Part shown: positions 4,610-18,743 of the stretch, piece by piece
How positions within the stretch are numbered: position 1 is the stretch's first letter
Layout of the letters: every line of letters starts with the position of its first letter
Assembly: GCF_051105105.1 (NCBI RefSeq)
Contig: NZ_CP185339.1
Source of the DNA: Nannocystis pusilla
GTDB lineage: Bacteria > Myxococcota_A > Polyangia > Nannocystales > Nannocystaceae
Length of the DNA: 64,000 bases
Direction: 5' to 3' (one strand)
The notes under the pieces: generated by a model
The model's input: the letters and a program-made list of their open reading frames with translations, nothing else
The model's database searches: none
What the model was told of the DNA's origin: nothing
Program-made: the position numbers and the translations under genes

Positions 4610-4697
4610 GCGATCGGCGGGATGATACAGGCGCGCGGCATTGCGCCTCAAGCCCGACACGACAGCGCAGCACCGTCGGGTTAGCCTGGACCCGCAG

Positions 4698-7600
4698 ATG
4701 TCGCGCGCCGGCGGTGATCCCACCCCGCGGTCCTCCGGGCCGGACCCCGATCCCACGCTTGTCGGCGACCTTCCTCCGCGACCGGATTTCGCCACCGACG
4801 AGACTCTGGCCGGAGATCTGTCGCCCCGCGCGCGGCCTGCCGCGAGCCCCCCGAGCCCGCCCCCGGACCTCGACCGCTCGTCGCTGTCGCAGCGCGAGCG
4901 CGCGCTTCAGCTCACCCGTTACGTCCTCATGCGTCGCCTCGGCGCCGGCGGCATGGGTGTCGTCTACCTCGCCTACGACCCCAGCCTCGATCGCAAGGTC
5001 GCGATCAAGCTGCTGCGCGTGGCCCCCGGCGACGGCCCCGCCCAGGCCGCGCACGCCCGCCTGCTGCGCGAGGCCCAGGCGCTGGCCCGGCTGTCGCACG
5101 GCAACGTCGTCGCGGTCCACGACGTCGGCAGCTACGACGCCGACGCCCTGACCACCATGAGGATCGGCCCGCACCGCACGGAGCCTGTCCCGAAGGACAG
5201 GATGCCGCAGGCCGCCGGCGTGTTCCTGGTGATGGAGTACGTCCCCGGCATCACCCTCGCCCAGTGGCTCGACGACCGCGTCCGCGGCGTCCGCGAGGTC
5301 CTCGACGTGTTCCTCGCCGCCGGCCGCGGCCTCGTCGCCGCCCACGCCGTCGGCATCATCCACCGCGACTTCAAGCCCGGCAACGTCCTGGTCGGAGAGA
5401 CAGGTCGGATCTGCGTGTTCGACTTCGGCCTGGCGCGGCCCGCCGGCGAGGTCGAGCCGACGAGCCCCGCCGGCTCGCCCGACCCTCACGCCCCGATCGA
5501 CCCGCTGTCCTCGTCGCTGGTGTCCGGCCCGCTCACCCGCGTGGGCACCCTCGTCGGCACGCCGGCCTACATGGCCCCGGAGCAGCGGGGCGGCGCGGCG
5601 ATCGACGAGCGCGCCGATCAGTTCAGCTTCTGCGTCGCGCTCTACGAGGGCCTGTACGGCAACCGCCCGTTCAGCGGCGACAATCTGTTCGCGCTCGAGG
5701 CGGCCAAGGCCCGGGGCCGCGTCGATCCGCCGCGGCGCCCCACCAAGGTCCCGCCGGCGATCCACCGCGCCATCCTCCGCGGCCTCTCGGCTGAACCCGG
5801 GGACAGGTGGCCGTCGATGCAGGCGCTGCTCGACGCGCTCGAGCGGCCGCTGCGGCGCGATCGCCGGCGCTGGGCCCTCGTCGGCGGCGGCGCGTCGCTC
5901 GTCGCCGGCGCCCTCGCCTTCGCCCTCGCCGGCGAAGCGCCCGCGCTGTGCACCGGGGCCGCCGAGGCGCTCGCGCCGACGTGGAACCCCGAGCGCCGCG
6001 CCGCCCTCGACGCCGCCTTCGCGGCCACCGGCCTGCCCTACGCCCCCGACGCGGCCGCGCGCGCCGGCGCCCGCGTCGACGCCTGGGCCGAGGCGTGGAT
6101 CGCCGGCCACACCGACGCGTGCGCGGCGGCCAACATCCGCGGCGAGCAATCACATGACCTTTTGGACAGGCGCATGCACTGCCTCGAGGATCGCCGCCAC
6201 GAGCTCGACGCCTTGCTCGGCGTGCTCGCCGGGGCCGACGCCGACGCCGTCGCGCACGCCCACGACGCCGTCGAGGCCTTGCCGTCCCCGGCCCGCTGCG
6301 CCGACCTCGACGCCCTCCGCGCCGCCGTCGCCCCGCCCGCGCCGGCGCTCGCCGAAGCGGTGCAGGGCCTGCGCGACCAGCTCTCGCTCGCCAGCGCCGA
6401 GGCGGCGGCCGGCCACCCCGGCGCCGGTCTCAACCTGCTCGCGGCCGCCGAGCAGCGCTCGCGCGACCTCGGCTATCGCCCGCTGCGCGCCGAGGTGCTG
6501 GCGCAGCTCGCCGAGCAGCTGTTCGTCGCCAGCAAGTACGACGACGGCGTCCGCGTCTACGGCGACGCCTACTGGGAGGCGCTCGCCGCCGGCCACGACC
6601 GCCTGGCCTTCGAGACAGCCAGCGGCTTCGCCGGCCGCCTGGCGCAGACCCTCGGCCACCCCGACGACGCCCAGCCGTGGCTGCGCCACGCCGAGGCCCT
6701 GTACGAGCGCCTCGGTCGCCCGCCCCGCCTCGGCGGCGACCTCGAGTTCCGCCGCGGCCAGATCGCCGAGGCCCGCCGCGAGTACGTCACCGCCATCGAC
6801 CACTACCGCCGCTCGCTCGCCGACCTGCCCGAGCGCTCGATCTCCTCCGTCACCACCCGCCAGAACCTCGCCAACGTCCACCTCAGCCTCGGTCAGCTCG
6901 ACCCGGCGCAGATCATCTTCGAGGACCTCCTGGCCCTGCGCCGCGACATCTACGGCGAGGGTCACCCGAGCAACGCCTTCTCGCTGGGCGACCTCGGCAA
7001 CGTCGCCACCCTGCGCGGCGACTTCGACACCGCCGAGCAGCACCAGCGCGCCGCCCTGACAATCCTCCGCGCCGCCCTGCCGCCGCGCCACGAGCGGCTC
7101 GCCTACCCGCTGTCGGCGTTGGCCGACATCGCCGCCCAGCGCGGCGACTTCGGCGCGGCCCTCGACGCCTACGAGGAGGCGCGGGCGATCTGGGAGCACA
7201 ACTTCGGCCCGCTGAGCACCCGCGTGGCCGCCATGCTCGAGCGGCTCGCCTCGGTCCAGCTGGTGCGCGGCGAGCTCGGGCTGGCCGAGCAGCACGCCAC
7301 CCGCGCGCTCGCCATCTGGAGCGCCGCGCAGAGCCCCGACCCTCAGGGCATCGTGCTGGCCCACCTCGCCCTCGCGCAGATCGAGCTCGCCCGCGACAAC
7401 TACGCCGCCGCCCGCGACCACACCGACCAGGCCCTGCCCCTGTCCGCCTCGGTGCTCGGCGAGGACAACCTCTATACCGCCGTCAGCCGGGCGATCCGGG
7501 GGGTCGCGCTCGCGGGCCTCGGCGACCTGTCGGGGGCCGAGCGCGAGGCCGACGCCGCCGTCGCGGCGATCGAGCGCAACTACGGCGGCGACTCGCTGTG

Positions 7601-10283: not shown

Positions 10284-11279
10284 ATGCCTCCCGTGCGCGA
10301 CCCGCGGGTGCTCACGGCTGGCCTGGCGGCCGCGCTCGCCTGCGGGGAGCCGGCGCCCGCGGCTGCGCCCGAGGAGGATGCGCCCGCACCGACCTCGCGC
10401 CCGCTCGTCCCCCGCGACCTCGACCGCACGCGTGGGTCCTCGCCGGCGTCTCGACCGACCGTCCATCGCGAGCCGATCGACGCCCGCGACCTCGACCTCC
10501 TGGCGCGCTGGCCCTCGCTCGCGCACTACCCCCGCGTCCCGCAGTCGCTCGCCGCGGGCCTGCGCGCCCGCGACCCCGCCGCGATCTTCCGCGGGATCGA
10601 GCTCGCCTTCGAGCCCGATCGCTGGACCGAGATCGACGCCTGGGAGCGCCTCGCCCATATCCGCCTCGGCGAGCCCGCGGGCTTCTGCCGCACCGACGCC
10701 GGCCGCCCCGTGCAGCTGTCCCCCGGGACATACGACCTCGGCTGCCTCGGCGGCTTCCTCGAGGGCGTCCGTCTGCTGTGGCTGCCGCGGCTCGAGCTCG
10801 CCGACCTCGTCCCCTGCGACCCGCCCGGCGGCTTCGAGTCGTGCCAGGACGGCGCCCACGCCGGGCGGGCCGCCCTCCTGCAGACAGCGGCCCGCCTGCC
10901 CGCGGACACCCTCCCGCACGGCCTCGAGCTGCTCGACCTGCGCCTCGCCGAGCTGGACCCCGAAGCCCTGCTCGCCGCCCTCGTCCCCGACGCGCTCCAC
11001 CTCTGCAGCGTCTCGCACCGGGCCAGCGCCCGCGGCGGCGAGCGCATGTACCATCACATGATGATCGTCGACCCCGCCCGCGATCGCCTCGGCCGCGTGC
11101 GCGTGTTCGACACCACCGGCGCCGCCGGCGTCGCCTGGCGGTCGATGCGACCCGAGCGCTTCCACGGCTACGCGCGCCGCCTCCTGGCCCGCCACGACGC
11201 CTTCCGCTACGACCCCGCGTCCGCCTGGCTCACCTGCCTCCCCGTGCGTCCGCCCGCGAGCGAAATCACAGGTCCATGA
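10284..11279 (+). CDS. Hypothetical lipoprotein
   Basis: Translation MPPVRDPRVLTAGLAAALACGEP gives a signal peptide with an ALAC lipobox. GC3 is high throughout. Confidence 0.55.
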   Translation: MPPVRDPRVLTAGLAAALACGEPAPAAAPEEDAPAPTSRPLVPRDLDRTRGSSPASRPTVHREPIDARDLDLLARWPSLAHYPRVPQSLAAGLRARDPAAIFRGIELAFEPDRWTEIDAWERLAHIRLGEPAGFCRTDAGRPVQLSPGTYDLGCLGGFLEGVRLLWLPRLELADLVPCDPPGGFESCQDGAHAGRAALLQTAARLPADTLPHGLELLDLRLAELDPEALLAALVPDALHLCSVSHRASARGGERMYHHMMIVDPARDRLGRVRVFDTTGAAGVAWRSMRPERFHGYARRLLARHDAFRYDPASAWLTCLPVRPPASEITGP

Positions 11280-11290
11280 GGACAGGTCCC
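11266..11290. repeat. Palindromic element (ACAGGTCC, GGACAGGTCCC) overlapping the sanA-like start
   Basis: Sequence cacaggtccatgaggacaggtcccATG. Confidence 0.55.
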
Positions 11291-11875
11291 ATGCGCCAGG
11301 TGCGAAAGTACATCCTCCGCCTCCTCGCCCTCCTGTGCGTCTGGGGCCTGGTCCACCTGGTCGTCATCGCCGTCGACGGGTGCACCGACGAGGACCGCCC
11401 CGCCAACGTCGCGGTCGTCCTCGGCAACCACGTCAGCCCCGCCGGCGAGCCCTCGCGCCGCCTCCAGCTGCGCCTCGACCGCGCCGCCGACCTGTACGCC
11501 GCCGGCCTCGCCCCGCGCCTCATCGTCAGCGGCGGCCAGGATCCCGGCAGCCCGCACGAGGCCGACGTCATGCGCGACTACCTGGTCGCGCGCGGCGTCC
11601 CGACCGAGCGGATCGCCGTCGACCGCGGCGGCGTCAACACCCACGCCACCGCCCGCTTCGTCGCCGCCGACCTGCGCGCCCGCGGCGAGCGCTCCGTCAT
11701 CGCCGTCAGCCAGTACTACCACGTCACCCGCGCCAAGCTGGCGCTGCGCCGCTTCGGCGTCGAGGCCACCGGCGCGCACGCTGACCTCGAGCTCGAGCCG
11801 CGCGAGCCGTGGTCGCTGCTGCGCGAGGTCGTCGGCTTCTACGCCTACCTGTTCAAGGACTACCGCCTCGACTGA
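11291..11875 (+). CDS. SanA/YdcF (DUF218) family membrane protein
   Basis: Translation MRQVRKYILRLLALLCVWGLVHL, then VVLGNHVSPAGEPSRRLQLRLDRAADLYAAGLAPRLIVSGG. Confidence 0.75.
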   Translation: MRQVRKYILRLLALLCVWGLVHLVVIAVDGCTDEDRPANVAVVLGNHVSPAGEPSRRLQLRLDRAADLYAAGLAPRLIVSGGQDPGSPHEADVMRDYLVARGVPTERIAVDRGGVNTHATARFVAADLRARGERSVIAVSQYYHVTRAKLALRRFGVEATGAHADLELEPREPWSLLREVVGFYAYLFKDYRLD

Positions 11876-11885
11876 TCGAGGCGCT

Positions 11886-11936
11886 CCCATGCCCGAGAGG
11901 ACATGTCCGTATGAACATGCCCTCCCGGACAGCCCG
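11886..11936. repeat. Palindromic decamer array (GGACATGTCC, GAACATGCCC, GGACAGCCC)
   Basis: Sits in the convergent gap between the sanA-like stop and the cyclase stop. Period is 14 nt. Confidence 0.75.
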
Positions 11937-11944
11937 CCGGTGAC

Positions 11945-13033
11945 TCAGAACTCGTCGAGGCCCTGGCCGAGCTCGACCCCGAGCGCCTCCTGGGCGGCGG
12001 TCGGGCACGGCGACGCGAAGCGCGACTCGTAGCGGGCCGCGAACTCGGCGTTGGCGACCATCGCCTGGTCGTCGGCCTGCAGCTCGGGGAGCAGCCCGCG
12101 GACCGCGAACACCTCGATCTCGCCGACGCTGCGGGTCACCGTCGTCTGCAGGAACTCGAGCGAGAAGAACGGCTCGATCAGCTGCCGGACCGCCCCCGAC
12201 ACGCACACCGAGTCGGGCTGGCCGACGCGCTCGACGTGGCTGGCGACGCTGACCGTGTCGCCCCACAGGTCGTAGACCGGCTTCTTCGAGCCGAGCACGC
12301 CGGAGATGCAGGGGCCCGAGTGGAGGCCGATGCGGAAGCTCCAGTCCCACTCGTCGACGATCGGCGTCAGCCCCGACGCCACCACCTGGGCGCAGCGCAG
12401 CGCCGCGAACGTCGCGTCGACGGCGTGCGACAGGCGGCGGTGAGGGATGCCCGAGACCGCCACGTACGTGTCGCCGGCGGTGCGCAGCTTCTCGACCCCG
12501 AACGCCGACGTGATCTGGTCGAAGGCCGAGAAGAAGAAGTCGAGCTGCTTGAGGCAGGTGACCGGGTCGACGCGGGCGGCCAGGCGCGAGAACTGGACCG
12601 CGTCGATGAACATCACCGTCGACTCGCGGTAGGCCTTGGGCTGGAGCCGCTCGCCGAGCGGCGCCGCCGACTCGCGCGGCAGCACCGCCAGCGCCAGGCT
12701 CTTGTCGAGCAGGGTCGCGGTCGCCAGCTGCGACGCCAGCGCCCGCGGCGAGCGGATGGCGACGCCCACCGCCAGCACCCCGTCGGAGGGCTCCAAGGAC
12801 AGGTCCCATGCGACAGGTCCTTCGGGCCAGGGATTCTCGGGCACCGCCTTGCCGCTGCTCTCGGCCAGGCTGCGCAGGAACGCCGGCGACGCGGCGCCGA
12901 ACAGCGCGCCGAGGCTGGGCGCGCCGGGGCGAGCCGCCAGCCACCGGGCCGCCGCCGGCGACGCCGGGGTCACCTTGCCGTCGGCATCGACGCGCAGCGC
13001 GATCGACTCCACCAGCTCGAGGATGGCCACCAT
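11945..13033 (-). CDS. Class III adenylate/guanylate cyclase (CHD domain) with an N-terminal sensor-like domain
   Basis: CHD motifs are present: STVMFIDAVQFSRL, RTAGDTYVAVSG and GLHSGPCISGVLGSKKPVYDLWGDTVSVASHVE. The start codon directly abuts the stop of the DUF1987-like gene upstream. Confidence 0.85.
   Translation of the reverse strand: MVAILELVESIALRVDADGKVTPASPAAARWLAARPGAPSLGALFGAASPAFLRSLAESSGKAVPENPWPEGPVAWDLSLEPSDGVLAVGVAIRSPRALASQLATATLLDKSLALAVLPRESAAPLGERLQPKAYRESTVMFIDAVQFSRLAARVDPVTCLKQLDFFFSAFDQITSAFGVEKLRTAGDTYVAVSGIPHRRLSHAVDATFAALRCAQVVASGLTPIVDEWDWSFRIGLHSGPCISGVLGSKKPVYDLWGDTVSVASHVERVGQPDSVCVSGAVRQLIEPFFSLEFLQTTVTRSVGEIEVFAVRGLLPELQADDQAMVANAEFAARYESRFASPCPTAAQEALGVELGQGLDEF
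12794..12835. repeat. Palindromic element copy (GGACAGGTCC twice) embedded in-frame in the cyclase CDS
   Basis: Encodes WPEGPVAWDLSLE using low-GC3 codons: gaa gga cct gtc gca tgg gac ctg tcc ttg. Confidence 0.55.
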
Positions 13034-13034
13034 G

Positions 13035-13442
13035 TCAGAACTCTCGCACGTCCTCGAAGGTCGTCCGGGCGGCGATGGTCTCCTCGTCGAGGTTGAGCAG
13101 GATCGGCAGCGTCTCCTGCTGCCAATCGTCCTCCTGCAGGCGGCGGACCAGCACCGGCCCGGGCAGCAGCAGGTAGACCAGCTCGACGATGTCCATGATC
13201 ACATAGAAGCCGTTGGAGTTGCAGAACTCGAGCTCGGTGAAGTCGAGCACGCTGCGCTGGATCTCGCGCTTCGGCAAGATCTCGCGCAGGTCCTGCAGCA
13301 GGGCCGACAGATAGCGATAGGGGTTGTCGATCCGGACCACGCCCGAGAACGTGAGGGAGAAGTTCCCCTCGTCCTCGCGGGCGACGCAGTGGAACACACT
13401 GACGCCGCCGTCCATGATCTCGCCGTAGGTGAGGACGTTCAT
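13035..13442 (-). CDS. DUF1987 (SiaC-like) partner-switch protein
   Basis: 135 aa, starting MNVLTYGEIMDGGVSVFHCV. The segment LEFCNSNGFYVIMDIVELV parallels the LNTSSIKAMMDILDLL region of SiaC as recalled from the literature. Its ATG overlaps the upstream stop as ATGA. Confidence 0.65.
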   Translation of the reverse strand: MNVLTYGEIMDGGVSVFHCVAREDEGNFSLTFSGVVRIDNPYRYLSALLQDLREILPKREIQRSVLDFTELEFCNSNGFYVIMDIVELVYLLLPGPVLVRRLQEDDWQQETLPILLNLDEETIAARTTFEDVREF

Positions 13443-13954
13443 TGCGCACCTCGCAAAGGAAACACCGCCTGCATCGTCAAGTTCTCGCCCGAGTATGTCG
13501 CGGTCAAGCGGAAGCGGTTCTCGGACACCAGGCGGATGAGGCCGAGCCCGCCGCGCAGCCGCTGCATGCGGCGGGCGCGGAGCGTGTCGGCGAACAGGCG
13601 CTTGGGGTCGGTCGCCGTCGTCAGCCGTTCGACGCGGTCCTTGACGTCCTGGTACTGCTCGAAGGTCGCCTTGTTGGTGACCTGGACCTGCAGCGCGTCG
13701 CCGTCGATGCGCAGGTCGACGCGCATCTGGCTGCCCGGATCGCTGACGTTGTCGATCACGTTCTGGACCAGCTCGGTGATGACCACGTTGGCCTTCTTGC
13801 ACAGCGCCTGCGGGTAGAACACCGTCAGCATCGCCAGCAGCGACTCGCCGACGGTCGTCGCCAGGTTACCGCGCGCGTCGCCCATCGGCGCGACCGTCAG
13901 CGTCAGGCCGACGCTGGTCGTGATCGGTTCATCGTCGAACTCGTGCTCGCTCAC
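13439..13954 (-). CDS. HATPase_c Ser/Thr kinase or anti-sigma-factor-like protein (SiaB/RsbW-like)
   Basis: Translation ELVQNVIDN...GGLGLIRL. The GTG start overlaps the PP2C stop as GTGA. Confidence 0.75.
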   Translation of the reverse strand: MSEHEFDDEPITTSVGLTLTVAPMGDARGNLATTVGESLLAMLTVFYPQALCKKANVVITELVQNVIDNVSDPGSQMRVDLRIDGDALQVQVTNKATFEQYQDVKDRVERLTTATDPKRLFADTLRARRMQRLRGGLGLIRLVSENRFRLTATYSGENLTMQAVFPLRGAQ

Positions 13955-14877
13955 GCCGCCCGCCTCCGCAGCACGATGAGGGTGATGTCGTCGGCGTCGA
14001 CGCGACGGAACTGCCCGTAGTCGTCGAGGCACCGCTGAAGGATCTGATTGGCCGGCAGCTCCGCGTTGGTGCGCACGAGCTCGTGCAGCCGGCGAGTGCT
14101 GTAGTCGGCGCCCGCGCTGTCCTGCGCCTCGACCATGCCGTCGGTGTACAGCGCCAGCACGTCACCTGTCTCGAAGGGCAGCTCGTACTCGCTGTAAGCG
14201 CGGCGGCGCAGGCCGATGAACGGGTCGCCCTTGTTGAACGTGTGGACCTCGCCGCCGCGGACCAGCACCCCGTAGCCGCCGCCGCACACGTAGCGGAACG
14301 TGCGCTCGCCGAACGCGACGAAGTTGACGGTGGCGTAGCGGCGGACCTCGCGGAGGAACCCGACGGTCGCGTTGTTGAGGTACTCGACGATGTCGCGCGG
14401 GCGCGACACCTGCTCCATCGTCTGGACCAGCTGGGCCTTGAGGTAGGCCATGATCAGCGCCGCCGACACCCCGTGGCCGGAGATGTCGAACACGCCGATC
14501 GCGTGGCTGCCGTCGCGCAGGCGGTAGAAGTCGTAGTAGTCGCCGCCGACCTCGGTCATCTGCTTGTGGTAGACCGAGAACTCGAAGCGCGCGAGCATCT
14601 CCGGGTGGTCCTTCGGCAGCAGCGCGTGCTGGACCTGCTGGGCGATCTCGAGGTCCTGGCGGATGGTCTGGTAGGCGCGGGCCAGCTCGCGCTCCTGCTC
14701 GTCGAGCCGCTCGTACGCGGTGCGCAGGTTGTCGTTGGTCGCCTGCCAGTAGGCCGTGTCGCGCTCGACCCGCTTGAGCAGGCCCTTGTACATCCAGAAC
14801 AGCTTGCGCATGTCCTCGCGCGACAGCTCGGACAGGCGGTCGGGGTCTCGCCCCTCGAGGATCTCGTCGAGCGTCAT
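13951..14877 (-). CDS. PP2C-type Ser/Thr phosphatase (SiaA/RsbU-like) with an N-terminal coiled coil
   Basis: PP2C (SpoIIE family) motifs GGDYYDF, FDISGHGVSAAL and LYTDGMVEAQD. The start lies 1 nt after the upstream stop. Confidence 0.85.
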   Translation of the reverse strand: MTLDEILEGRDPDRLSELSREDMRKLFWMYKGLLKRVERDTAYWQATNDNLRTAYERLDEQERELARAYQTIRQDLEIAQQVQHALLPKDHPEMLARFEFSVYHKQMTEVGGDYYDFYRLRDGSHAIGVFDISGHGVSAALIMAYLKAQLVQTMEQVSRPRDIVEYLNNATVGFLREVRRYATVNFVAFGERTFRYVCGGGYGVLVRGGEVHTFNKGDPFIGLRRRAYSEYELPFETGDVLALYTDGMVEAQDSAGADYSTRRLHELVRTNAELPANQILQRCLDDYGQFRRVDADDITLIVLRRRAA

Positions 14878-14878
14878 C

Positions 14879-15421
14879 TCAGTGGAACTCCACCACGAGC
14901 CGGTTGGGGTCGCCGTCGTTGGTCACGTCGACGTAGTAGAGGTCGCCGGGCGCCATCACCCCGCCGATCAGCACGCCGCGCTCGATCGTCTTGTCGAACG
15001 GCGTGGACGAGCGGATCACGGCGTGGCCGCGCTCCGAGTCGAACTCGGCCAGGTCGAACGAGCCGACCACCTCGCGCGGGCCGCGGATGACGCTGGCGAT
15101 GCCGTGGCTGCCGGTCTGAAAGTGCAGGAAGTCGGCGCCACGGTGGATGAGCGCCTTGCCGGGCCCGCCGTGGTACCACAGCCGCATCATCTCGATGCCG
15201 AGCTTGAGCCGGATCGGCTCGACGTTGGCGTACGACTCGCCGACCATCCGCTCGATCTCCATCCACTTCGACAGCGGGAACCACCGCCCCATGTCGATGT
15301 CGGCCAGCAGCGCTGTGGCTCGGCGACCGGCCACGATGTTGAGGTTGACGCACGCCTGGGCGAAGCCGCCCATCAGCGCCCCGTGGACCACCGGCTCGCT
15401 CGGCTCGCTCGGCTCGCTCAT
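14879..15421 (-). CDS. Hypothetical 180 aa protein, possibly a ligand-binding sensor
   Basis: Translation MSEPSEPSEPVVHGALMGGFAQAC. GC3 is high, and the start overlaps the GRAS-like stop as ATGA. Confidence 0.65.
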   Translation of the reverse strand: MSEPSEPSEPVVHGALMGGFAQACVNLNIVAGRRATALLADIDMGRWFPLSKWMEIERMVGESYANVEPIRLKLGIEMMRLWYHGGPGKALIHRGADFLHFQTGSHGIASVIRGPREVVGSFDLAEFDSERGHAVIRSSTPFDKTIERGVLIGGVMAPGDLYYVDVTNDGDPNRLVVEFH

Positions 15422-16512
15422 CCCGCCTCCCCCGCGAACGCGAACACCGCGATGATCGGCACCCCGCGGTAGGACAGCCGCACGAGCCCGGAGCTGACCG
15501 AGGAGCGGCAGTACTCGGGCAGGTCGACGTCGAGGTCGATCGCCGGGTACGGCACGAAGCCCGACTTCTTCAGCCGGAGCAGCCACGACTCGAGCGTCTC
15601 GTGGCGCTCGGTGCGGAAGGCGTCGCTGGTGCCGAGGATGTCGCGGACCTCGCGGCCGAAGAAGCCCTCCTTGATGGCGAACTTCTCGTCGGGGGACGCG
15701 TCGCTGCGGTCGACCAGGTCGAACACCGTCGCGAAGTGCTGCCAACAGTGGTGCATGCGCCGGGTCAGGTGCTCGGTGTCGTGGTCCGAGCTCGGCTCGA
15801 CCAGCGTGAACACCCGCGGCCTCAGGGCCCGCAGCCGCCGCAGCAGGCGGGTGCGCGCGTCGCTGTCGGGGCCCGTGGTGTGGTGCAGCGTGTAGGCCGC
15901 GTTGATCGACAAGCTCCCCTCGGCGAGCGCCTCGAAGTGCGCGTAGTCGGCATCCTCGCAGACCTCGATCAGCTTGACCAGCGGATAGATCTCGATGTCG
16001 AACGGCAGCTCGGCGCGGACCTCGTCGATCGCGGCCACGCCCTCGTTCAGGGCGGTGCGGTTGGGCTCGAGCGCGATCACGCGGAGGCGCTCGATCTTGC
16101 CGGGGTCGCGCGCGAGCGCCCGCAGCAGCGCGACGATCTGCAGGCCCTTGCCGATCCCGATCTCGAGCAGCGCCGGCGTGCTCGACTGCCGCATCGCGTG
16201 CACGAGGTACTGGTTGGCCAGCGCGTAGCCCTGCGGCACCGCCGGGATCGCCCGCTGCAGCAGCGTGAACAGGTCGATCTGCGGCCGCTTCTCGGCTTGC
16301 AGGTACAAGTTCCGCCCCGACAGCAGGTTGCGGTCGATCCGTCGCAACAGCGACTCGGCGACGATGTGGGACAACAGCGCGTCGCTCGGGACATCGACGT
16401 CGAGGGCGTCGAGGAGCTGGCTCGCTATCACCGTCTTGGCGACCTGCTCGCGATGCCGGCGAATGTCCTGGCACGCGGCCAAAATCAGCTTGTAGCGGTC
16501 CTCGTAGAGCAT
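15418..16512 (-). CDS. Bacterial GRAS-like domain protein (Rossmann-fold, methyltransferase-related)
   Basis: A VHIID-like block reads ALLEIGIGKGLQIVALLRALARDPGKIERLRVIALEP, and a SAW-like C-terminus reads RTERHETLESWLLRLKKSGFVPYP. The start is placed at MLYEDRYK because upstream codons have low GC3. Confidence 0.6.
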   Translation of the reverse strand: MLYEDRYKLILAACQDIRRHREQVAKTVIASQLLDALDVDVPSDALLSHIVAESLLRRIDRNLLSGRNLYLQAEKRPQIDLFTLLQRAIPAVPQGYALANQYLVHAMRQSSTPALLEIGIGKGLQIVALLRALARDPGKIERLRVIALEPNRTALNEGVAAIDEVRAELPFDIEIYPLVKLIEVCEDADYAHFEALAEGSLSINAAYTLHHTTGPDSDARTRLLRRLRALRPRVFTLVEPSSDHDTEHLTRRMHHCWQHFATVFDLVDRSDASPDEKFAIKEGFFGREVRDILGTSDAFRTERHETLESWLLRLKKSGFVPYPAIDLDVDLPEYCRSSVSSGLVRLSYRGVPIIAVFAFAGEAG

Positions 16513-16805
16513 GCGCCGCAGACTGAAGGTCACACAGGGGATCCGCCTTGGCAAGCTGATGCGCACCCGATCGTGGCCGAGAAGATTATCTCGGCCCTCG
16601 CGCGGAAACGCGCCGCGTAGCCTGGCGCAGGCCCCGTCGGCCTCTGTCTCAAAGACCACCCAGCGGCGCTACCGGACCGCGGGCCACTGCGCAGGTCGCG
16701 TGCGGCAGAGGACCGTGACGCACACGACGGACTGCATCTTGAGACATGGTCCGAAAACCATGACGCGGCGCGGCGAATCCGGCAGAAAGTGGCCGAAAGC
16801 AGGCC

Positions 16806-17333
16806 TCACGCGGCGGCGGCGCCGCCAGCCATCTGCACCTCTGCAGCGGCGCTCGCCAGCGATCGCAGCTCGAGCCCGACCTCGAAGCTCAGCGCGGTCG
16901 CACCGACGCGGCCGCGCTGGCTCTCGCGGTGGACTTCGACGGCGAGCGTCACGTGCGTCGCATTCGGTACTCTGCCGCTGCGGAAGCGCACCGTCGCGAT
17001 CGCAGTCAGCGGCTCCCCCACCAGCACCTCACCGAAGCGCCGCACGCGGCTGATGCTGCGCAGCGTCAGCGCAACGTCGCGGAACGGCTCGCTGTGGGCC
17101 AGGGCCGACAGCGCCCGACCGAACGCGACCGGCAGCGGACAAACTCGACCCCACGGCTCGGGCGCGCCGCCGCCGGACACGCTCCCGGTCGACAGCATCT
17201 CCTCTCCGCAACCCACTACCTGTCCCAAGAAGCTGGACTCCACATGCGCAGTCAGATCGGCCGGCTTCACCGTGAAGGTGGAAGTCGTCAAGACCGTTCC
17301 GACGCTGAGAGATCCGAGATCGTGTGCGAGCAT
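16806..17333 (-). CDS. Hypothetical protein with atypical codon usage
   Basis: 175 aa ORF in a locally lower-GC stretch. GC3 is lower than in neighbouring genes, so coding status is uncertain. Confidence 0.3.
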   Translation of the reverse strand: MLAHDLGSLSVGTVLTTSTFTVKPADLTAHVESSFLGQVVGCGEEMLSTGSVSGGGAPEPWGRVCPLPVAFGRALSALAHSEPFRDVALTLRSISRVRRFGEVLVGEPLTAIATVRFRSGRVPNATHVTLAVEVHRESQRGRVGATALSFEVGLELRSLASAAAEVQMAGGAAAA

Positions 17334-17612
17334 GACGCGGCCTCCTTGGAATTAGCGTGCCGCCCACTGCCGCGATTTGCACGCCAGATCACGTCCAGCG
17401 ACGATGTGTGCGTCTTCCTCCGCCGTGGATCGCGAGCATCGCCGCAGATCCGGCGAATTTCTCGGCGTCGGCGCCGATCGTGCGCATGACCGCCTGCTTG
17501 CATCGGACGGCGAAATGATCTTCACACGCCTCCTGTGCTGCGAATTCGACGCGATCTCCAGCGCGATCTCTTGCGCGTGCAACAACGACGGCGGTTCACA
17601 CGACCTCTCCGT

Positions 17613-18251
17613 GTGCTCCTCGACTTCATCGCGCCGCCGGTGTGCATCGCCTGTCGTCACCTCCTCCGGGCCCCGCCGGTCGGGGGCGTGCCGCCCCTGT
17701 GCAGTCGCTGCGCCCCCGAGCTCGCGCTGCTCGACCCGGCCGCGCGGCGCGTCGGCGCCGTCGAGGCCTGCTTCCTTTATGACGGCCCGCTCGCCGCCGC
17801 CGTCCGGCGGCTCAAGTTCGTCGGCGAGCTCGAGCTCGCCGGGCCGCTGGGCCGGCTCCTCGCCCACGCGCCGGTGTGGCGCGAGGGCTGGGATCTCGTC
17901 GCGCCGGTGCCTCTGCACTGGCGCCGCGCCCTCGCCCGCGGCTTCGACCAGGCCGCCTTGCTGGCTCGCTGGGCCGCCCGCGAGCACCCGACCGGCGCCC
18001 GCCTCGAGCCGCGCCTCCTGCAGCGCACGCGCGCCACGGCGCCGCAGAGCGAGCTCGACGGTCCGGCGCGCCGCGACAACCTCGCGGGCGCGGTCGTCGT
18101 GCGAGCCGGGCGGTCGCTCGTCGGCCGGCGGGTCCTCGTGGTCGACGACGTGACCACCACCGGCGCCACCCTGACCGCCTGCATCGCCGCCATACGGGCC
18201 GCAGGGGCCGCCCGCGCCGCCGGGCTTGCCCTCCTGCGGTCCGCTTTGTAG
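17613..18251 (+). CDS. ComF family protein (double zinc ribbon plus phosphoribosyltransferase domain)
   Basis: Zinc-ribbon pattern PPVCIACRHLL...LCSRCAPEL, and a PRTase motif RRVLVVDDVTTTGATL. The GTG start is placed where GC3 rises. Confidence 0.75.
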   Translation: MLLDFIAPPVCIACRHLLRAPPVGGVPPLCSRCAPELALLDPAARRVGAVEACFLYDGPLAAAVRRLKFVGELELAGPLGRLLAHAPVWREGWDLVAPVPLHWRRALARGFDQAALLARWAAREHPTGARLEPRLLQRTRATAPQSELDGPARRDNLAGAVVVRAGRSLVGRRVLVVDDVTTTGATLTACIAAIRAAGAARAAGLALLRSAL

Positions 18252-18266
18252 CTTTCCACCCCCGCC

Positions 18267-18743
18267 GTGAAGAAGACCGACAAGACCGCGACGAAGGACG
18301 GCCACATCTTCGTCCAGAACCGCCGAGCCACCTTCGAGTACGAGGTCCTCGAGCGCTACGAGGCCGGCCTCGCGCTCATGGGCAGCGAGGTCAAGTCGAT
18401 CCGCGACGGCCGCGCCAGCCTGGGCGAGTCGTACTGCCAGTTCCAGGGCGACCAGCTCTTCCTCTATCAATCGCACATCGGCGAGTACACGCAGGCGCAC
18501 GACCGCAACCACCTGCCGCTGCGCCCGCGCAAGCTGCTGCTGCACCGCAAGGAGCTCGACCACCTGACCGAGGCGGTCGACCAGGCCGGGCTCACGCTGA
18601 TCCCCCTGGCGCTGCTGGCCCGCAACGGCCGGATCAAGCTCGAGATGGCGCTGTGCCGCGGCAAGAAGACCTACGACAAGCGGGCCTCGATCAAGGAGCG
18701 CGAGCAGAAGCGTGAGATCGAGCGGGCCATCCGGGAGCGGTGA
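18267..18743 (+). CDS. smpB: SsrA-binding protein SmpB
   Basis: Translation IFVQNRRATFEYEVLERYEAGLALMGSEVKSIRDGRASLGESY matches the SmpB signature. The start is GTG. Confidence 0.9.
   Translation: MKKTDKTATKDGHIFVQNRRATFEYEVLERYEAGLALMGSEVKSIRDGRASLGESYCQFQGDQLFLYQSHIGEYTQAHDRNHLPLRPRKLLLHRKELDHLTEAVDQAGLTLIPLALLARNGRIKLEMALCRGKKTYDKRASIKEREQKREIERAIRER

Follow-up and report, generated by a model that had tools for sequence, protein, structure and literature searches.

What does a compact run of six genes at positions 11945–16512 of a 64,000-nucleotide (nt) stretch of Nannocystis pusilla DNA (contig NZ_CP185339.1 of assembly GCF_051105105.1; "the window" below is this whole stretch) do for its bacterium? 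A first-pass annotation had taken the genes, all on the minus strand and named g1–g6 here, as one co-translated unit in which a Sia-type partner switch is combined with a GRAS-like protein, an unknown protein and a nucleotidyl cyclase. From profile searches, predicted structures and a comparison of homologous loci, it appears reasonably probable that g1–g6 form one operon and encode a signalling pathway of partner-switching type whose input module is new. The six genes, in the order in which they are read, are as follows.

15418..16512, minus strand: g1, GRAS-domain protein, predicted S-adenosylmethionine (SAM)-dependent methyltransferase, 364 amino acids (aa)
14879..15421, minus strand: g2, stand-alone sensor of haem-less H-NOX/V4R-like fold, from an unannotated domain family, 180 aa
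13951..14877, minus strand: g3, PP2C Ser/Thr phosphatase (PPM/SpoIIE-type), cytosolic, in which residues ~1–95 form a helical transducer module, 308 aa
13439..13954, minus strand: g4, kinase-like protein of GHKL fold from the DUF6272/slr1658 lineage, which may phosphorylate g5 or bind it, 171 aa, GTG start
13035..13442, minus strand: g5, SiaC/STAS-like switch phosphoprotein, candidate phosphosite S76 in FCNSNGFY, 135 aa
11945..13033, minus strand: g6, protein with a PAS-like region at its N-terminus and a class III cyclase-homology domain of degenerate hexad, 362 aa

Open reading frames (ORFs) were found at all six positions, and third-position G+C content (0.94–1.0, in a window of ~70% G+C) tracked their frames. 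By sequence reading, the junctions are ATGA for g1/g2, TGAgATG for g2/g3, GTGA for g3/g4, ATGA for g4/g5 and TGAcATG for g5/g6. The tight packing of one compact unit is as the first-pass annotation described it, with three 4-nt overlaps; what it had also counted as start/stop overlaps at g2/g3 and g5/g6 are two 1-nt spacers. A search for sites resembling promoters or terminators gave none within the cluster, a negative result of little weight. Genes on both sides lie on the plus strand, so that g1–g6 stand as an isolated same-strand block.

For comparison across genomes, a genome collection was scanned with the g2 family as seed, which gave 42 loci, and tblastn searches were then carried out with the six window proteins. 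At the protein level the window DNA is 98–100% identical to Nannocystis pusilla or Nannocystis sp. RBIL2. Recurrence of the neighbourhood and of the overlaps in homologues had been set in advance as the test of the operon, and both were observed. The order g1-g2-g3-g4-g5 on one strand was present in all 31 loci with long enough contigs, which come from Nannocystis, other Myxococcota, many Spirochaetota and a few unclassified metagenome-assembled genomes (MAGs); loci on shorter contigs agreed with this order. The ATGA overlap of g4/g5 was seen in 32 of 32 loci, g3 and g4 everywhere overlapped or lay no more than 17 nt apart, and g1/g2 were ATGA-coupled in several lineages. Among Nannocystis species, the ratio of non-synonymous to synonymous substitution rates (dN/dS) was 0.0–0.36 for all six genes, indicating purifying selection. 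Because the order holds in 31 loci from distant lineages, the g4/g5 overlap is universal and dN/dS values are low, the arrangement is far beyond what chance would give. Across loci, the conserved core of the annotated six-gene unit is g1–g5, and g6 is an optional sixth gene, found after g5 in 24 loci at a spacing of 0–102 nt. No further gene family was found to recur around the cassette loci, whether of sigma factors or of biosynthetic genes.

The input side of the cassette was approached through g2, which had been left as an unknown 180-aa protein and is now reassigned as a haem-less H-NOX-fold sensor domain. Its fold is H-NOX-like, and no Pfam model, HNOB included, matched g2 or 31 of its relatives at E ≤ 1. 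Among 107 representatives of the family no alignment column held His in 30% or more of the sequences (H100 of the window protein is variable), and neither the proximal His nor the Y-x-S-x-R haem-propionate motif is conserved. Given the lack of an HNOB match, of a conserved proximal His and of Y-x-S-x-R, sensing of haem or nitric oxide by g2 is unlikely. An exhaustive profile search returned at least 211 representative clusters of the family, mostly N-terminal domains of longer proteins. The fusions sampled were histidine kinases, hybrid kinases with PAS domains and one GGDEF cyclase, and over their first ~180 residues no Pfam model was found; from these contexts, g2 represents a sensor-input domain family yet to be annotated. 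Like bacterial H-NOX sensors, the family lies beside, or is fused ahead of, histidine kinase and GGDEF outputs via a helical linker.

The partner to which g2 would signal is indicated by the N-terminus of g3. As had been annotated, g3 is a PP2C phosphatase: it matched Pfam SpoIIE at 8.7e-28 (98 bits, cut-off 25, model positions 2–192 of 192), and the metal-binding motifs GDYYD, DISGHG, YTDG and DDIT are all present in g3 and kept in all of its orthologues. The NCBIfam SiaA equivalog matched over the PP2C part only (6.5e-21, 74.5 bits, cut-off 700), which does not place g3 as a SiaA orthologue. The first ~90 residues of g3 are helical and carry the motif FW..TN.NL..AYE.LDE. Of 92 long fusions, 62 carry a module resembling this N-terminus immediately behind their g2-type domain (lowest E-value 1e-16); such a module also heads the histidine kinases that adjoin stand-alone g2 genes in loci L022 and L033, joins g2 to GAF-PAS domains in L041 and joins it to a Cys-rich module in protein P0079. 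Signalling from g2 via the g3 N-terminus has its best evidence in these g2-linker fusions. RsbT is known to activate the phosphatase RsbU through a coiled-coil linker, a mechanism proposed to be common to phosphatases, diguanylate cyclases and kinases (PMC12143880), and by analogy the arrangement of g2 domain and g3 N-terminus fits it.

Two further sets of g2-type proteins were noted. Pairs of g2-type sensor and histidine kinase lie at 4667–6121 of L022 and at 4958–7191 of L033, the latter together with a response regulator; the contigs were binned as Thorarchaeota and Heimdallarchaeota MAGs, and the genes may be truly archaeal or may come from mis-binned bacterial DNA. In P0079, P0080 and P0082, the C-terminal ~90 residues form a Cys-rich module, LPICASCKKIRDDKGYW...SHGICPEC, which is fused to the g2 domain and linker, has no Pfam model and may be a zinc-binding output domain.

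The second input gene, g1, had been called GRAS-like, and by sequence it is a genuine GRAS-domain protein. It matched Pfam GRAS (PF03514) at 1.4e-35 (123.4 bits, cut-off 27, model positions 37–328 of 374). In phmmer searches rice SCL7 (5hyz) was matched at 1.9e-15, DELLA RGA and SCARECROW were matched as well, and plant GRAS structures as a group fell between 1e-15 and 1e-11. The alignment with rice SCL7 and DELLA RGA extends over ~300 residues and includes the RERHE...W...GF motif, which is kept in g1 orthologues in the form RERHE...W..R...GF. Also kept, in 39 orthologues, are an EIGIGKG (GxGxG) loop and an E/D-P at the end of β2. This loop, with the acidic residue ending the next strand, reads as the SAM-binding signature of Rossmann methyltransferases, from which g1 is predicted to be a methyltransferase. 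Bacterial GRAS proteins resembling methyltransferases were reportedly put forward by Zhang, Iyer and Aravind in 2012 (as cited in PMC4279901), and the motif reading of g1 agrees. Two differences separate g1 from the plant proteins (DELLA, SCARECROW, SCL): g1 retains the GxGxG SAM loop, where rice SCL7, the sole plant GRAS protein aligned at this loop, reads DFGIVQG, and g1 is a single-domain protein within a prokaryotic signalling operon.

A distant bacterial GRAS homologue, P0429 (34% identity), was also observed, at 1465–2595 of L043 and 471–1601 of L044. An upstream gene for a GAF-HisKA-HATPase_c histidine kinase is coupled to it through ATGA, and a convergent α/β-hydrolase gene lies opposite; these loci show that bacterial GRAS occurs in a second kind of signalling context.

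Downstream of the phosphatase, the pair g4/g5 would form the switch itself. For g4, annotated as an HATPase_c kinase, two boxes of GHKL type are invariant, the N-box (E61, N65) and the G2 box (GGLGL); the family assignment and a sequence link to SiaB did not stand. Its best named match was NCBIfam slr1658_superfam (7.5e-9), at 35.3 bits below the cut-off of 100, and Pfam DUF6272, HATPase_c and HATPase_c_2 were all matched below threshold. Among 20 orthologues, 19 matched DUF6272 (best 6.6e-8) and 10 matched HATPase_c_2, the family of RsbW/SpoIIAB type, which places g4 in the DUF6272/slr1658 lineage. By phmmer and profile searches at E ≤ 10, no PDB relatives of g4 were found, SiaB (6kko) included, and at E ≤ 1 its NCBIfam matches were slr1658-type families and Ada only, with SiaB not matched.

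For g5, annotated as DUF1987-like (SiaC-type), PDB sequence searches by phmmer and profile gave nothing meaningful, and Pfam SiaC/DUF1987 (PF09345) was matched at E ≤ 1 by 15 of 28 orthologues (best 7.9e-4). The fold of the predicted structure resembles those of SiaC, SpoIIAA and RsbV, and the best Foldseek match was SpoIIAA in complex with SpoIIAB. The SiaC-type assignment is accordingly kept as a likeness of modelled fold only. The FCNSNGFY motif is nearly invariant; S76 within it is kept in at least 90% of sequences and starts helix 76–92 (α2) in the model. With an Asn before it and its place at the N-terminus of α2, S76 is a candidate phosphosite, at a position equivalent to those of SiaC T68 (peptide LLYLN-T-SS) and SpoIIAA-type S58 (10.1101/674879).

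The last gene, g6, matched Pfam Guanylate_cyc at 3.3e-36 (125 bits, cut-off 21.9), as expected for the adenylyl/guanylyl cyclase that had been annotated, and in the PDB it comes closest to mammalian AC5, AC8 and AC9 and to mycobacterial adenylyl cyclases. It is built of a PAS-like region, a helical stalk and a class III cyclase-homology domain. The hexad of the window protein reads D144-R184-D188-D255-S262-H266, which is short of the full catalytic set. The same D-R-D-D-S-H was found in L001–L006, with T at the second position in L008 and L010, whereas 14 of 15 orthologues from outside Nannocystis carry the adenylyl-cyclase pattern D-K-D-D-N-R (L031 has Gly for Arg). Nannocystis g6 has therefore kept the metal-binding Asp residues, but its substrate Lys is gone, and so are Asn and Arg of the transition state; in the alignment, its S/T...H pattern is that of the C1 half of mammalian cyclases. 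In class III cyclases, a homodimer of subunits with these three losses has no complete active site. A homodimer of Nannocystis g6 is thus probably inactive or weakly active, judging by these residues, and the protein may be a regulatory C1-like heterodimer subunit or a non-catalytic effector. Because half of the canonical catalytic or substrate residues, three of six, are lost, the annotated output of cyclic AMP (cAMP) or cyclic GMP is doubtful in this genome; by the same residues, cyclase output is plausible in Spirochaetota and other Myxococcota. Among Nannocystis species g6 has a dN/dS of 0.12–0.27. No second cyclase or paralogue of g6 was found in the window, and each of L001–L006 gave a single g6 match within ±10 kb of the cassette.

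Shorter forms of g6 (278–282 aa) were seen in spirochaete cassettes among L021, L025, L031, L032, L034 and L036; these have lost the PAS-like region and kept the stalk and catalytic domain. A reading of the locus as a defence system was rejected, as PADLOC matched the generic cyclase domain only (PycC, 5.5e-7).

The partner-switching pathway that we propose would start with a small ligand binding to g2, a ligand possibly made, modified or co-bound by the SAM-methyltransferase-like g1. Liganded (or unliganded) g2 would dock on the N-terminal helical module of g3, bringing about coiled-coil dimerisation and activation of the PP2C domain, and g3 would then remove phosphate from Ser76 of g5. Once unphosphorylated, g5 would swap g4 for its target; by analogy with SiaC and SiaD this would be the stalk or the cyclase-homology domain of g6, where g6 is present, and g5 would control its dimerisation or activity. 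Resetting of the switch would fall to g4, which would either re-phosphorylate g5 or only sequester it. The output would be cAMP in the majority of lineages, where g6 lacks none of the adenylyl-cyclase residues. The model for the last step is SiaC, which when unphosphorylated binds and activates the adjacent nucleotide cyclase SiaD (PMC8457831). We infer the contacts, the phosphorylation and the direction of regulation along this pathway by analogy with SiaABCD and RsbT/RsbU, and the link of g1 to a g2 ligand is guesswork.

Several observations weigh against this pathway. On the output side, g6 is missing in about 8 loci, roughly a quarter of the cassettes, where unrelated genes take its place; cassettes without a cyclase imply that g6 is not the sole target of the switch and perhaps not the primary one. 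Within the switch, the G1 box of g4 has changed from DxGxG to N94-K-A-T, with loss of the adenine-binding Asp and both Gly, and the glycines are missing in all orthologues; as a result of this degeneracy, kinase activity of g4 is plausible, not secure. The sequence of g5 scored 12.3 bits against PF09345, where the cut-off is 24.5, and 25.2 bits against NCBIfam slr1659, where the cut-off is 100 and which is still its best named match. On the input side, g1 is missing from the histidine kinase-type and fused contexts of g2. Finally, the matches to the g3 N-terminus are partly coiled-coil, and composition could inflate them; their constant position argues otherwise.

The absence of the cyclase from about 8 loci also bears on the wiring downstream of g5. 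In an arrangement of RsbW type, g4 would be the effector-binding part, as an anti-sigma factor or as a direct inhibitor of the cyclase, and g5 would titrate g4 once g3 had dephosphorylated g5; the output may then be an unlinked sigma factor, with g6 a lineage-specific add-on. In addition to the cassettes without g6, this wiring is favoured by the HATPase_c_2 matches of half of the g4 orthologues sampled, by SpoIIAA with SpoIIAB as the top Foldseek match of g5, and by the universal coupling of g4 and g5. We regard it as the main rival to a switch in which g5 itself engages the target, and as rather unlikely.

It is improbable that g4 is a pseudokinase and the switch independent of phosphorylation, with another substrate for g3 and a constitutive g5/g4 complex regulated by ligand or nucleotide. 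The change of the G1 Asp to Asn94, the G1 glycines gone from all orthologues and the sub-threshold score of every HATPase Pfam match are as such a complex would have them; against it, the catalytic motifs of the g3 PP2C domain are perfectly kept, g5 has a near-invariant Ser at the phosphosite position of SiaC and SpoIIAA, and both the Mg-binding Asn of the g4 N-box and the G2 box are invariant. Very improbable is that g1, perhaps together with g2, works as an enzyme of metabolism or biosynthesis and is only co-transcribed with an unrelated partner-switch/cyclase module: methyltransferase motifs are kept in g1, and g2-type sensors occur without it in histidine kinase-type and fused contexts, but g1-g2-g3 are adjacent in every PP2C-type locus, across two phyla and with ATGA coupling of g1/g2 in several lineages, the distant GRAS homologue is likewise ATGA-coupled to a GAF histidine kinase, and no biosynthetic neighbours recur.

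The partner-switching operon was then compared with known systems. It resembles SiaABCD most, yet its proteins do not classify as SiaA, SiaB, SiaC (by hidden Markov model) or SiaD. In SiaABCD of Pseudomonas aeruginosa the output is a GGDEF protein (PMC8457831; 10.1101/674879), whereas the cassette has a class III cyclase-homology domain in this place, and no GGDEF gene was found within the operon by Pfam. Compared with SiaA (~660 aa), g3 is short and cytosolic and has a coiled-coil N-terminus; unlike SiaB, to which it has no detectable sequence relation, g4 falls in DUF6272/slr1658; and g5 lies under the Pfam threshold for SiaC. Two extra genes upstream, for the GRAS protein g1 and the H-NOX-like g2, have no Sia counterpart.

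With RsbU/RsbV/RsbW and SpoIIE/SpoIIAA/SpoIIAB (PMC12143880), the cassette shares a PPM phosphatase controlled via an N-terminal helical linker by a separate partner, which for the cassette is proposed, and a GHKL protein paired with a STAS-fold antagonist that is phosphorylated at the N-terminus of α2, for which g5 has a candidate site. It differs in that no sigma factor is linked to it, the activating partner would be an H-NOX-fold sensor and not the RsbT kinase or a stressosome, and g5 has extra N-terminal strands typical of SiaC. The best named families for g4 and g5 are those of slr1658/slr1659 of Synechocystis (NCBIfam NF047703/NF047705), likewise an adjacent pair of DUF6272-type GHKL and STAS-like proteins and described as a regulator pair (Zer et al. 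2018, as cited in PMC7555055); at 35 and 25 bits, g4 and g5 stay far under the curated cut-offs of 100. Like animal soluble guanylate cyclase, in which H-NOX, coiled coil and class III cyclase are joined, the cassette terminates in a class III cyclase domain, but its coupling of g2 to the cyclase would be indirect, via phosphatase and partner switch.

The architecture had been thought to be without a described counterpart, and none was found for the six genes in the searchable literature; the 2012 paper of Zhang, Iyer and Aravind may hold an earlier mention. The cassette is a real and conserved variant of partner switching, and apparently an undescribed one. Its new traits are a two-gene input (GRAS protein and haem-less H-NOX-like sensor), a kinase-like protein of DUF6272/slr1658 type, a SiaC-like phosphoprotein and an optional class III cyclase. 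With the GRAS homologue g1 placed in a signalling operon that is conserved and tractable, the pre-plant role of the GRAS fold becomes testable. The sensor domain, an H-NOX fold without haem ligands in at least 211 clusters, is connected by one common helical linker to histidine kinases, diguanylate cyclases and phosphatases. The operon would also carry the SiaC-type logic, by which a phosphoprotein activates an adjacent cyclase, from cyclic di-GMP over to cAMP signalling, and Nannocystis g6 offers a natural case of a cyclase-homology domain under purifying selection despite the loss of catalytic residues.

A more specific proposal can be made tentatively, as a possibility that we hold with considerable doubt: that bacteria perceive a small hormone-like molecule through the cassette, in which a catalytically competent GRAS methyltransferase and a haem-less H-NOX-fold receptor would act on the same ligand and together control a PP2C partner switch. 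In that case the cassette would represent the ancestral setting in signalling out of which the GRAS domain was taken up by plants, and the sensor-domain family would be new and widespread, feeding histidine kinases, GGDEF proteins, PP2C phosphatases and, via a SiaC-like protein, class III cyclases.

The surroundings of the cluster in the window comprise the following features.

ends 11875, plus strand: DUF218 gene, flank of the cluster
16513..16805, minus strand: conserved non-coding leader 5' of g1, probable promoter/5' untranslated region, a function that is predicted
17535–18251, plus strand: ComF-like phosphoribosyltransferase gene, flank of the cluster
18267–18743, plus strand: SmpB gene (Pfam 9.5e-55), flank of the cluster

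The ComF-like and SmpB genes make this a plain housekeeping neighbourhood. No Rfam match, sigma-70 consensus promoter or intrinsic terminator was found in 11000–18000. When the leader (~290 nt) was aligned across five Nannocystis species, several near-invariant blocks were observed, and the last ~110 nt were almost invariant, with conservation above that of synonymous sites. A palindrome, CATGGTTTTCGGACCATG, lies inside the leader at 16746–16763.

Further 5' of g1, an ORF of 175 aa (16806–17333, minus strand) is conserved and has no Pfam match. It is a real gene, since substitutions between Nannocystis species sit at third codon positions. As a seventh gene of the operon it was rejected: it is adjacent to the cassette in Nannocystis only (L001–L006 and L008) and lies ~6 kb off in L007, L009 and L010.

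Two starts may be considered for g1. In RefSeq, the identical N. pusilla GRAS protein has 371 aa (P0351) and a GTG start at 16533, 21 nt 5' of the ATG at 16512; the GTG is preceded by a Shine-Dalgarno-like AAGGCGG, and the ATG has no such element. The ATG at 16512 agrees with the N-termini of the orthologues.

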